Notes: generated by a model not told the origin, from the sequence alone. Shown: positions 30,821-36,400, counted from the stretch's first letter. The stretch is DNA of 64,000 nucleotides from a virus (IMGVR_UViG_2061766007_000586:96001-160000); one strand, 5' to 3'. A program made the numbers and translations.

Positions 30821-31147
30821 TCAATGCTTAAGATAGGTAATAAATGTAATATAAAGAATGATAAGAAGTCCCCAATGAAGAAGAATATATTTTTTTACTT
30901 TCTCTACATCTAGTCTTCCTTTCGAACAATCCTTCGTCACATTGATTCTTGCGGCTTCCATTTTTTCATCCCACGTTTTGCATTTCTTAACTTTAGCTTT
31001 GAACTCTTCAATTTCCTCTTCGTCTTTATCTTGTTCAGCTCTATTAAAAAGAACAACAGCATACCCGAACAGAGTATACAAAATGAAATCAATCACAATG
31101 CCTCTGATAGTTTTTCCGATTTTCTGTGAAAACGATTTAGTTTCCAT
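30821..31147 (-). CDS. Small membrane protein with two hydrophobic helices (108 aa)
   Basis: RBS aaggag; segments GIVIDFILYTLFGYAVVLF and YILLHWGLLIILYITFITYL; early promoter upstream. Confidence 0.75.
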   Translation of the reverse strand: METKSFSQKIGKTIRGIVIDFILYTLFGYAVVLFNRAEQDKDEEEIEEFKAKVKKCKTWDEKMEAARINVTKDCSKGRLDVEKVKKYILLHWGLLIILYITFITYLKH

Positions 31148-31181
31148 ATTAATCTCCTTTATTAATTATGGATTATTTATT

Positions 31182-31193
31182 TAGTAATATATA
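31182..31193 (-). promoter_or_regulatory. Early-type promoter TATATATTACTA
   Basis: Exact 12-mer also found upstream of gyrB (44893) and the DNA polymerase (53947); contains the phiKZ early consensus TATATTAC. Confidence 0.75.
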
Positions 31194-31212
31194 CCTAAAC
31201 AAAGAAAGAAAA

Positions 31213-31293
31213 TGGTGGAGCTAGTGGGGATCGAACCCACGTCTTGCGGCGGCACTTTGGCTTTAACCGCAATCGACACCATGTCATAGCCCC
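31213..31293 (-). ncRNA. tmRNA-like tRNA-like domain (81 nt, Ala identity, encoded CCA) lacking the mRNA-like domain
   Basis: GGGGCUA/UAGCUCC-ACCA acceptor with G3:U70 and A73; D-loop UGACAUGGUGUCGA; helix UUGCGG/CCGCAA; GAC linker; T-arm GUGGG-UUCGAUC-CCCAC. Confidence 0.85.
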
Positions 31294-31302
31294 ATTTGAA
31301 AG

Positions 31303-31606
31303 ATAAACTCCTTTCTCAGGTGGAACACTATCCAGATCTTTGTGTTCCGGGTTAACCCAGTCATTACTGACTGTCTCCTTTTTCACGCCTGTGACCGAAC
31401 AATAGCATCGCTGTCTTCGGTCTACTGCTCATCACAGTATCAGGAGCGAGGGACGTATATCGTGATCAGGGTCTTGTCGCGATCAAGAACCCCACCGGAG
31501 CTACACGTTAATATGCTTGGTAGAAGCACCGTGTCTCTTCCCCTCCACACTGGACCACCTGCTTTTCCATACAGATGGCGGAGATTGGTTAAAGATTAGA
31601 GTTTAT
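31303..31606 (-). ncRNA. Unknown structured RNA of about 304 nt, directly upstream of the tmRNA-like element
   Basis: GC-elevated with no credible ORF; ends pair (AUAAACUC/GAGUUUAU); many nested hairpins; early-type promoter just upstream. Confidence 0.65.
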
Positions 31607-31617
31607 TTTTATCATTA

Positions 31618-31629
31618 TAGTCATATATA
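31618..31629 (-). promoter_or_regulatory. Early-type promoter TATATATGACTA driving the RNA cassette
   Basis: One mismatch to the TATATATTACTA 12-mer; 12 nt upstream of the RNA closing stem. Confidence 0.6.
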
Positions 31630-31659
31630 ATCGATAAATTTTGAACAACACTTTTAAAA

Positions 31660-31687
31660 GATCCTGGAGCATTTATGCTCCAGGATC
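31660..31687 (-). terminator. Intrinsic terminator
   Basis: Stem gatcctggagcat/atgctccaggatc plus U-tract. Confidence 0.9.
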
Positions 31688-33405: not shown

Positions 33406-36400
33406 TTACTCGAGAAGATCTTCTTCTCCAAGTTCAAGTGTTTCTAATCTTGAACCCATATGTCTGAAGATTTCTTTCGTATCGAACCATTTGTCTTTCT
33501 GTTCCTGGCTTACATTAGAAGCAATGCGAAGAATACCACCATAGCAGATATTCAGATGTTTTACTTTTACTCCATTGAAGAGTTCAAGTACACCACCTCT
33601 CACGACAGTAACATTCTCTAAGATGCTACCACCGTAAGCCGTGATTGTCGTGCCTGCTTCAACTGAAGCACCTTCCAAAACACCTTCGTTCATTACTTCA
33701 ATTCTGTTACCATCTGTTGGTTCACGGAATGACTGAAGACCTTTAACTTTACCACGGATATAGAGAACTGTACCGTTTTTAATGACAACGTTATAGAACT
33801 CCGTTCCTTTATGAACAGTGACATATATATTATCCAGAGTTAAGTCAAAACATTCGTTACTATTAACTGTGTTTAGCTCATCTCCGTCAAAATCAAGATA
33901 GCCACCACATTCATAAACATTTCCGTAGCATTCTTTCGAATCGATACGAAGCATTCCACCAGGATACACCCATGCATCATCGATATATCCTGATTTCAGA
34001 TGAACAAATCCACCATCGAGAACAGTGACTCTAGATGCTGTTGAACCATCAATTATAAGATCCGTACAGAAATTGACAGGAAGATAATCCTTCTTAGGAG
34101 ATTTATCTTCAAAAACTCCAGTCTGAATTTCTTTTTCAGAAACACCTCTCACCTGAAGATTCTTATAAGGATAGATGTCACAAGTGACTATCTTCTTATA
34201 AACTGTTTCTTTGTGTTCAGGATCTTTTACTACGGCAGGTTCAGCAGGTTCTGTATGCCAGTTGGCAGTATCAGAATAAACCACATCCTGCTTTTTTGAC
34301 GAAGGAAGATTTTCATCAATGTTTGGATCATAGATCTGAATAGATCCTTTGGACGGAGTTGTTCTCGGGTTGTCCATGACATCCCAAATACCGTAGTTGA
34401 CAAACGGAGGACCATCGATCTTTTTACAATCATACATGACATCTAAAAGATCAAACTGGAAATTCTTAGGCAACTCATTATGGAAGGATACATGTGTGAT
34501 TCTTGCTTTCTTGATAAGATCTTTAGAAAGCTCTTTAATCATTTTGTTTCCTGCAATATTGATCTGCCGCAGAGTCCACTTCTTATAAATGAAAGTATAG
34601 ATATTTACCTCAGGATTGTAACTGATTTCAGGTTTATCCCAGAACGAAGTATAGATCGATTTGTCTGATTTGTAATCATCCGTTGGGAATTCCAATTCAA
34701 GCCATGAAATGAAAGAAGAGTTCGGATAATTAGTCCTACAATGAAGAGTCAGATATCCATCTGATGTCTTACCATCTAATTCTTCAAGTTTAGTTTCAAT
34801 AGCTCGAGCCATTCTCTGCTTATTGTTTTCAGATATTTTCTTCGAAGCTTCGATAAGCTTATTGGAAGTTGAGAGCAAAGGCACATAAGCTTGGAAATTG
34901 GTAATACGGATGTTTTCTGTTTTTTCAGCCATATTAACCTGTTTTCCATTATACCAAGCTTCGGTAAAGTGAGGTACATAGAAACCTTTCGTGTCATGAT
35001 CATATCCCCAACCAGTGATCTTGATACTATCAAGAATACAATCACGTTCGAAAATAGTTTGGTCATCAGGAACCCAAAGACACCAATCAGCCAAACGAAC
35101 TGTCATATGATTTGTTTCAGGATTGAAGAGAACAATCCCATTTTTAAAACTGATAGTACATTTGACTGGTTTATCTTCACCAAAACGATTGTATTCTAAG
35201 TAAATTTCTCTTAAAGTACAAACGTTGTTAGCAGAATAACCACCAATAACTAAATTACTGGGATACTGCGAAGATAATTCCTTGGCTTCTTTCTGCCAAT
35301 CATATCTTGAATCGTCTACGGGTTTGCATTCAGGATCACCAAGACATTCATAGCACAGAGGCTCATCACAAACGTAAAGGTTCTTCTGTCTAAAGAGAGC
35401 ACCTTTCTTATCAATGAGACATCTGAAATCTTTGGTAGATCTATAAGTCATTCCAAGAATATCAGCCTTAGCAAGGAAGTCAAGATCTCCTGCGGACATA
35501 TCCGTTTCTGCATCAACAAGATAACAATCTTTCAAATGCAGTAATCCTCTATACTCGAAAGTAGCTTTATCTCTCGGATCAAGAGGATTCATAAACTTGT
35601 AAGGTTCCTCAAGCTTACATGGCTTACTACAGCAATTCCAGGAATCCATTTTGCAATAAAGTTTATAATTGTGATTCAGAATGTGAACAAGAAGATATTC
35701 AAATTCAAAATCTTCAACTTTATCCGTAGTTGTGTATAACGTCAAATACACATCAGACTGATCATTCAGGTCGTAAGTTTTATCATCAGTTGATTTAATT
35801 TTATCATCAGATGCTTTCACTTCAACACCTTCTTCCATTTTGATAAGTTTAAGTGATTCTTCCTTAACTTTAGGATTCACATAAACAGTTGATCCTGTAC
35901 AAGCAGTTACATGATGAGTATGTGTTCTTGGGCAAATCGAAATAGAGCCACCCTTAGCAATATAAATATTTTTAAGATGTGCTCTATCCTCAGCAAACAA
36001 ATGTCCACCATCTAACACAACAACAGAATCAATGATGCTATGTGCTTTTGCCAGAACATAACCATTTTTACCAATATGTGAATCTTTTAAGATACCATAT
36101 TCGTAAACTGTTCCTTCGTTAAGAATTTCACAATCTTTGAAAGTTGTCACATGATGGATAGTAAAAGGGGTGGCAACAATACTACCCTGCAGAGCACTAG
36201 TCATGAAATGAATAGTGGAAGTATCATCGAAAGAAACCCAACCACCAAGTTCTCTAATATTAGAAACTGTGGCATTATGGCTGATATTCAATCTTCCGTT
36301 TCTCACATCAATACTACCGATGTTTCCACCATAGCAGATTACTCCACCATCGCCTAACATATTAATATGTTCGACCGAACCACTAACTTTCATAGACCAA

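Follow-up and report, generated by a model that had tools for sequence, protein, structure and literature searches.

ROOL (RF03087) and GOLLD (RF01998) are phage-encoded, elaborately folded non-coding RNAs lying beside tRNA genes, and large structured phage RNAs of this type rank with the most poorly understood RNAs. Rumen samples were the source of the first ROOL; in GOLLD, the 3' part is conserved and the 5' part variable, and tRNAs are in some cases covalently linked to the RNA. Furthermore, several systems are known in which a longer RNA and a tRNA-like RNA derive from one transcript, namely MALAT1/mascRNA, MEN-beta, and the 'species 1 and 2' of the phage T4 tRNA cluster; in MALAT1/mascRNA, the upstream RNA obtains its 3' end from the RNase P cut at the tRNA-like fold. 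Pre-tmRNA, like any mimic of the acceptor/T-arm, is matured by RNase P, an enzyme that prefers U at position -1. The permuted two-piece tmRNA starts with the acceptor piece, with which the coding piece pairs. Lastly, mycobacteriophage DS6A offers an example of a phage tmRNA reduced to the tRNA-like domain (TLD) (Hudson, Lau and Williams 2014, PMC4131195), and the TLD-only tmRNA has been proposed to titrate SmpB and thereby inhibit host trans-translation, according to the citation of Mao et al. 2009 in PMC4131195.

The stretch of DNA analysed here (the window, 64,000 nt) corresponds to positions 96001-160000 of a virus record of 318.6 kb, rated as complete, in which an earlier note had proposed a structured RNA, here called X, just upstream of a mini-tmRNA. 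X is phage-borne, has a multi-helix fold backed by covariation, and abuts a tRNA-like gene; by analogy, we read it as nearest in kind to the tRNA-linked ROOL/GOLLD RNAs. It matches them in neither sequence nor structure, it is 300-440 nt long vs. about 580 and about 800 nt, and it adjoins a TLD-only tmRNA, whereas ROOL and GOLLD adjoin ordinary tRNAs. Unlike MALAT1, X comes from a bacterial virus, has no triple-helix end, and is followed by a tmRNA mimic, and the cleavage of its unit is only predicted. The likeness to the two-piece tmRNA is that two RNAs would come from one ssrA-type transcript; unlike that system, the TLD of the window is complete in one piece, and there is neither a tag frame nor a kept pairing to X. 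The likeness to DS6A, in turn, concerns the neighbour (31293-31213) and not X, and no structured RNA upstream of the DS6A element has been reported.

Organization of the locus and its tRNA-like element

The RNA unit is encoded on the minus strand, flanked by a 513-aa and a 108-aa gene, and is composed, in the order of that strand, of a terminator hairpin, a promoter-like motif, X, a spacer, the TLD-only tmRNA, and a U-rich tract (Table 1); the 20 tRNA genes of the virus record all lie outside it. The terminator hairpin of the 513-aa gene is kept, with compensatory G/C changes, in L061, L062, L064, and L066, and the terminator scan called the same palindrome on the plus strand.

Table 1. Features of the RNA locus in window coordinates, together with the metatranscriptome contigs made only of X.
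Feature	Position	Strand	Length	Remarks
Terminator hairpin of the upstream 513-aa gene	31660..31687	-		GAUCCUGGAGCA-UAAA-UGCUCCAGGAUC, then UUUU
Promoter-like motif	31614..31650	-		TGTTGTTC at 31650-31643, TATATAT at 31629-31623, TATAAT at 31619-31614
X RNA	31294..31608	-	about 300-315 nt	structured, non-coding; GC-rich part 31606-31303
P1, 5' strand	31599..31606	-		AUAAACUC; pairs with 31310-31303 in the MFE fold; window-specific
P2, 5' strand	31580..31584	-		UCUCC; closes the conserved core; pairs with GGAGA at 31378-31374
P3 hairpin	31554..31579	-		GCCAUCUGU-AUGGAAAA-GCAGGUGGU; paired in types A, B, and C
CUAYCAA-loop hairpin	31513..31529	-		GUGCUU-CUACC-AAGCAU; loop motif kept in types A, B, and C
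P2, 3' strand	31374..31378	-		GGAGA; inside the purine-rich, Shine-Dalgarno-like AAGGAG
GNRA hairpin	31358..31373	-		CAGUCA-GUAA-UGACUG; 6 pairs
Loop hairpin	31322..31348	-		GGAACAC/GUGUUCC; 13-nt loop AAAGAUCUGGAUA at 31341-31329
P1, 3' strand	31303..31310	-		GAGUUUAU; window-specific
Spacer	31294..31302	-	9 nt	CUUUCAAAU; U at -1 before the tRNA-like domain
TLD-only tmRNA (mini-tmRNA)	31213..31293	-	81 nt	acceptor, D-like loop, helix 2, T-arm, ACCA
U-rich tract	31190..31212	-		UUUUCUUUCUUUGUUU, after the CCA end; position conserved in relatives
X-only contig	31316-31601		286 nt	word depth 65
X-only contig	31308-31581		274 nt	
X-only contig	31312-31575		266 nt	
X-only contig	31330-31543		215 nt	

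The promoter previously placed just upstream of X corresponds to a promoter-like motif with the spacing TGTTGTTC-N13-TATATAT-N3-TATAAT, which is almost invariant in five loci (the window, L061, L064, L066, and L071) and occurs three times in the whole 318-kb genome; the other genomic sites of the TG(T/C)TGTTC...TATATA motif are at G000:C1 313784 and 167316, on the minus strand. The sigma-70 consensus scan did not call the motif at 31614-31650; thus, its promoter function is treated here as putative. From this motif, X would start 6-8 nt past the -10 box, and it would end between its last helix (31303) and the predicted RNase P site (31294).

In agreement with the earlier note, the terminator scan gave no terminator-like site on the minus strand between the promoter-like motif and the tRNA-like domain, and no promoter-like site was retrieved by the scan between X and the TLD; this suggests that X and the TLD belong to one transcript. 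The U-rich tract downstream was not called by the terminator scan; from its sequence, it is the probable end of the RNA-only transcription unit. An AT-rich motif (GTATATATTAC...), located at 31165-31195 (minus strand) of the window between the mini-tmRNA and the 108-aa gene, is present in all the relatives and is probably a separate phage promoter for the 108-aa gene.

The neighbour of X had been described as a mini-tmRNA, and this assignment holds. The 81-nt element scored 45.8 bits (E 5e-17) against the Rfam tmRNA model, just missing the gathering score of 47, and the model matches it end to end with 308 interior positions deleted. Its acceptor stem has 7 bp, including G3:U70, and helix 2 closes on itself in the fold; moreover, it has the GGGG start, A73-CCA, a D loop ending in UCGA, and the T-arm GGGUUCGA, with neither an anticodon arm nor a tag frame. 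Because of this end-to-end match and of its TLD fold, we assign the element to the TLD-only tmRNAs; ARAGORN called no gene at the locus.

TLD-only tmRNAs are widespread in phage contigs, yet they have hardly been studied. A degenerate TLD pattern, closed by a short helix 2, retrieved 51 IMG/VR loci (L004-L054), about 45 of which are clear TLD-only tmRNAs. The latter have a recurring AAAGCC-hairpin interior and a GC content of 0.31-0.69; those of L005, L016, L042, L043, L047, and L048 lie directly after tRNA genes, and some (e.g., L005, L016, L042, and L048) are inside tRNA arrays. None of these other IMG/VR TLD-only loci harbors an X-like sequence or the X loop hairpin. A survey of ORF-free length at the other TLD loci was uninformative in GC-rich contigs.

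Relatives and types of X

Homologues of the 612-aa neighbour protein were found in rumen and gut assemblies at 32-99% identity; the cassette is present on the contigs encoding the 70-75% identity group of this protein, plus one JGI contig, L065, the single locus that the motif scan of the JGI metagenomes gave. The more distant relatives (L055-L060 and L072-L074, with 45-67% protein identity) harbor neither a TLD nor X at the locus. The search on IMG/VR with the neighbour proteins, the exact TLD, the X motif, and the TLD-family motif did not retrieve any close relative; blastn of types A-D (see below) against GenBank phages gave no match, and probing bacterial genomes with the TLD-family motif yielded only three matches, which are chance ones in coding DNA. 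All the X sequences identified to date belong to one clade of rumen jumbo phages.

Among the syntenic loci of the relatives, the terminator, the promoter, and the tRNA-like domain align well, whereas the intervening RNA does not. Four types of the latter can be recognized: type A (the window, L061, and L064); type B (L062, L063, and L065), in which the core follows an extra 5' domain of about 255 nt; type C (L066, L077, and L078), with an extra 5' hairpin; and type D (L071), which has no recognisable similarity to the other three and no detectable module in common with them. The coupling of X with the mini-tmRNA is kept in every relative having the cassette.

X sequences of different types share about 50% identity, no more than unrelated sequences do, vs. 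74-86% for the TLD variants. Furthermore, a single TLD sequence is 100% identical in L061, L062, L064, L065, and L066, that is, in loci with types A, B, and C; type A, in turn, accompanies two TLD variants that are 74% identical to each other, and L071 carries a window-like TLD beside the unrelated type D, its TLD and neighbour protein being the closest to those of the window though the upstream RNA is unrelated.

These data bear on the main rival of the reading that we favour, according to which X would be just a long structured 5' leader of the mini-tmRNA, serving its transcription, folding, or RNase P presentation, with the accumulating RNA as a functionless stable by-product. Such a leader would fit with X being far less conserved than the TLD, with identical TLDs behind types A, B, and C, and with the presence of type D in the same slot; the locus therefore tolerates the complete replacement of X, as a mere leader would. 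Most other phage mini-tmRNAs, moreover, lack an upstream RNA of this kind. We regard the functionless leader as unlikely, on account of the helices, loops, and contigs described in the following sections.

Fold of X

The description of 31606-31303 as GC-elevated and non-coding proved correct. The GC content is 0.48-0.505 across 31200-31600 vs. 0.29-0.38 in the flanks (overall, 0.49 vs. 0.33 for 31606-31303), and the minimum free energy of the 321-nt RNA is -107.7 kcal/mol vs. -85.6 +/- 5.6 for its shuffles (z -3.97), none of 100 shuffles folding as well. No ORF is conserved on either strand of X across the relatives. It is true that a frame of 99 codons, the longest one, is stop-free on the antisense strand (31300-31599), and that a sense AUG at 31365 lies behind the Shine-Dalgarno-like AAGGAG, as would be expected if the stretch encoded a small protein; indels of 1 nt and 4 nt between the window and L061/L064, however, break the former, the latter opens a frame of 26, 10, 2, or 0 codons depending on the type, and the substitutions preserve base pairs instead, which makes a small protein on either strand extremely improbable. 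Likewise, no tag frame, as expected of a tmRNA mRNA-like domain, is conserved between types, in keeping with the earlier note, which had found no tag ORF in X.

Searching Rfam 15 with 31303-31606 gave no family at the gathering score, nor at E<=10, among 4227 models, which include those of bacterial RNase P A/B, the group I intron, ROOL, GOLLD, HEARO, T-box, 6S, and SRP, and the six homologous loci gave no match at E<=0.1. These results make it very improbable that X belongs, as a highly diverged member, to a known large RNA class, such as RNase P RNA, a group I intron, the tmRNA interior, ROOL/GOLLD, or an IscB/TnpB guide scaffold, even though its size, its multi-helix architecture, and its GNRA hairpin would fit, and even though it adjoins an RNase P substrate and is phage-borne beside a tRNA-like gene, as ROOL/GOLLD often are. 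Exons are absent, and X is not adjacent to any nuclease gene. In bacterial RNase P RNA, the order of the elements is P1-P2-P3-P4...P18-P2'-P4'-P1', with a P4 pseudoknot and the CR-I/CR-V consensus; P18 precedes P2' and P4' follows it. The order in X is different (P2, P3, arms, and P2', followed by two hairpins), no RNase P model of Rfam matches it, and no long-range P4-like pairing is kept when types A-C are compared; the absence of a P4 consensus had already been noticed. We read X as a genuine structured non-coding RNA whose family is uncatalogued, new, narrow, and fast-evolving.

Concerning the individual helices, P3, the GNRA hairpin, and the loop hairpin (Table 1), all proposed in the earlier note, are present and show compensatory changes in the relatives. 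The proposed pairing of the two ends (P1) exists in the window, but both strands are insertions absent from L061/L064; thus, P1 is a local extension of the window and not a family feature. The true closing helix of the core, P2, had been missed. It reads UCUCC/GGAGA in type A, UCUCCUC/GAGGAGA in type B (L062/L065), and CCUCC/GGAGG in type C (L066), and, when the types are compared from the conserved GGAG(A/G) and the sequence after it, a single complementary 5' strand is present in each of them, with a hairpin directly behind that strand.

P3 has three different sequences in the same place in types A, B, and C, with the pairing complete in each, and the loop motif CUACCAA/CUAUCAA is kept in the same types on differing stems; an A-rich joiner also belongs to the core common to them. 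In the GNRA hairpin, five of the six pairs differ on both sides in type C, the fraction of paired cells is 100%, and none of 500 shuffles reached the observed score. In the loop hairpin, four of the five inner pairs are changed on both sides, and 96% of the cells are paired. These statistics refer to three alignable types with five distinct sequences, that is, to few independent events; type B and the P3 helices were compared by coordinates, the MAFFT alignment being incorrect there. As a whole, five helices are kept through compensatory changes across types A-C, which argues against a functionless leader, as does the retention of the 13-nt loop and of the CUAYCAA loop motif across types that are otherwise unalignable.

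The type-A consensus fold obtained with RNAalifold has 78 pairs, several of them with one- and two-sided consistent changes, and embeds the previously proposed GGGUUCUUG/CAAGACCC, GACCGAA/UUCGGUC, and ACACG/CGUGU. The pairing CAGUGU/AUACUG, on the other hand, is not supported: AUACUG is replaced by AUUCGC in L061/L064, and it is another local hairpin that is kept there (ACUG...CAGU in the window, GCUAC...GUAGC in L061/L064).

The loop AAAGAUCUGGAUA is near-invariant and represents the most conserved element of the X family, with a consensus across types of 13-14 nt, AAAGAU(CU/UG/-)GG(A)AUA(A), that includes UGG in all types; the palindromic loop sequence AGAUCU of type A is not kept in types B and C. 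A covariance model of the loop hairpin, run on the genome and on the other 51 mini-tmRNA loci of phages, did not retrieve any further convincing copy, and the search of the phage genome for targets of the 13-nt loop gave only near-matches at chance level. A weak match to the same model (23.4 bits, E 0.003) at 34325-34347 of the window (plus strand), antisense inside a 1034-aa gene, is probably due to chance. A candidate pseudoknot of the conserved loop with the CCAGUG that follows P3 would comprise, as judged by eye, 5-6 bp in type A, a shifted register in type B, and 3 bp in type C. Lastly, the P3 loop and the CUAUCAA loop are complementary over 8-9 nt in types B and C and over only 3 nt in type A, so a contact between the two loops is not claimed for the window.

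Transcripts, maturation, and possible role

Part of the RNA stretch is contained in 13 rumen or gut metatranscriptome runs from 11 studies; four of these runs, each from a different bovine rumen study, were examined in detail as assembled Logan contigs. Each of the four studies yielded one contig made only of X (Table 1), with at most two differences from the window; one of these, 31405 G>A, is common to all four and turns a predicted C-G pair into U-G, so that the pairing is kept. According to these data, X is expressed in the rumen. The contigs end at 31308-31330, 15-37 nt before the TLD, and contigs give neither true ends nor strand; that they end near the predicted ends of X in four studies is a weak hint of a discrete RNA species. 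One X contig has a word depth about six times that of a neighbouring-gene contig, such depth being a poor measure of expression. The occurrence of X-only contigs in four studies, one of them at this depth, adds to the points against the functionless leader.

In the four runs, no contig bridges X to the TLD or to the upstream gene, and no phage contig covers 31602-31634 or the TLD, gaps of this kind being no evidence either way. The contig pieces that match the TLD have 7-10 mismatches and foreign flanks and are, therefore, assigned to other organisms.

We propose the following scenario. The rumen jumbo phage would harbor an RNA-only transcription unit formed by its own promoter, X, the 9-nt spacer, the TLD-only tmRNA, and a U-rich stop, and X and the TLD would be made as one primary transcript. 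Since all five sequence types have AU directly in front of the acceptor-stem GGG, and given the known preferences of RNase P, the host enzyme is predicted to cut this transcript before G31293 (G+1 of the tRNA-like domain). This single cut would serve both RNAs, maturing the mini-tmRNA at its 5' end and X at its 3' end. Judging from sequence and analogy, the splitting of one precursor into X and the mini-tmRNA by RNase P is the most likely course. The one-precursor reading put forward in the earlier note fits with the conservation of the unit, the lack of an intervening terminator or promoter, the U at -1, and the canonical acceptor and T-arm of the TLD; a contig bridging the two parts was not found.

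After the cut, X would work on its own, using its conserved loops, as a scaffold that binds proteins or self-assembles, without sequence-specific pairing to the mini-tmRNA. Its core, consisting of P2, P3, the CUAYCAA-loop arm, the A-rich joiner, the GNRA hairpin, and the 13-nt-loop hairpin, would bear freely swapped peripheral arms and 5' extensions. The invariant loops on covarying stems, the swapped arms, the phage origin, and the tRNA-type neighbours favour this independent scaffold or binding role; against it, the analysis brought up no signal of a partner, a target, or an oligomer. Taken as a whole, that is, as an RNase P-split unit whose X is an independent scaffold or binding RNA in the manner of ROOL/GOLLD, the reading lies, in our judgment, slightly on the probable side.

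A different possibility is a ribosome-rescue device made of two RNAs, X and the mini-tmRNA, in which X would replace the pseudoknot/mRNA-like domain in trans or would hold the TLD. The two RNAs invariably share one unit, the length of X is close to that of the missing tmRNA interior, and the UGG of the conserved loop, present in all types, might hold the CCA end of the TLD; moreover, positions 47-55 of the TLD find a 9-nt complement in L061/L064 and another in L062/L065. These complements, however, lie in parts of X that are not homologous, drop to 5 nt in the window, and have no counterpart in type C; there is no conserved tag frame, and the tmRNA model aligns to the TLD alone. Since X types and TLD types occur in every combination, since no complementarity is conserved between types, and since the X-TLD duplex energies are within about 2 sd of those of shuffles and the search for a SmpB gene in the phage found none, a base-paired partnership, including the partnering of X with the mini-tmRNA in trans that the earlier note had offered as its alternative, is disfavoured, and we consider the two-RNA device quite unlikely.

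Decidedly unlikely, in our opinion, is also that X and the mini-tmRNA are the two halves of an RNase P-split device for the takeover of ribosome rescue, with X as a swappable specificity/scaffold module docking the TLD, SmpB, or the ribosome. In such a device, X would dock via the invariant UGG-containing loop and the Shine-Dalgarno/anti-Shine-Dalgarno-like strands of P2, and the fast turnover of the X cassettes would reflect an arms race with host defences. If X and the mini-tmRNA did act together, they would represent a new viral way of interfering with ribosome rescue; otherwise, the locus would be a clear case, in a bacterial virus, of a stable RNA whose 3' end is made by a tRNA-like processing signal. 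X is smaller than ROOL and GOLLD, is expressed in nature, and combines a compact conserved core with naturally swapped arms; it thus amounts to a ready-made set of mutants for studies of structure and function.

Some further features of the unit vary among the relatives. The mini-tmRNA of L071 (L071:1017-1096) has no encoded CCA and ends in ...GCUCCAUUU. Directly after the mini-tmRNA, L065 (L065:533-642) and L071 (L071:1108-1215) harbor a tRNA-like element of about 110 nt (47.4 bits with the Rfam tRNA model), having an acceptor stem, a D arm, a T arm, and a greatly enlarged 'anticodon' arm, which ARAGORN did not call. In L061 only, about 190 nt of extra non-coding sequence (L061:4364-4560) lie between the mini-tmRNA and the U-rich stop and may represent a further small RNA of the RNA-only transcription unit of this locus.

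The gene downstream of the RNA unit is also swapped (window 30821-31147, minus strand; L061:4594-4920; L066:2973-3299; L071:1283-1600; L062:4579-4962). It codes for one of two unrelated proteins of about 108 aa, either membrane-like (window and L064) or Cys-rich (L061/L066/L071); in L064, the window-type 108-aa gene is followed by a second gene, coding for 107 aa, and in L062 a 127-aa gene lies downstream on the opposite strand. On comparison of these loci, the RNA-unit locus is a hot spot for cassette exchange.
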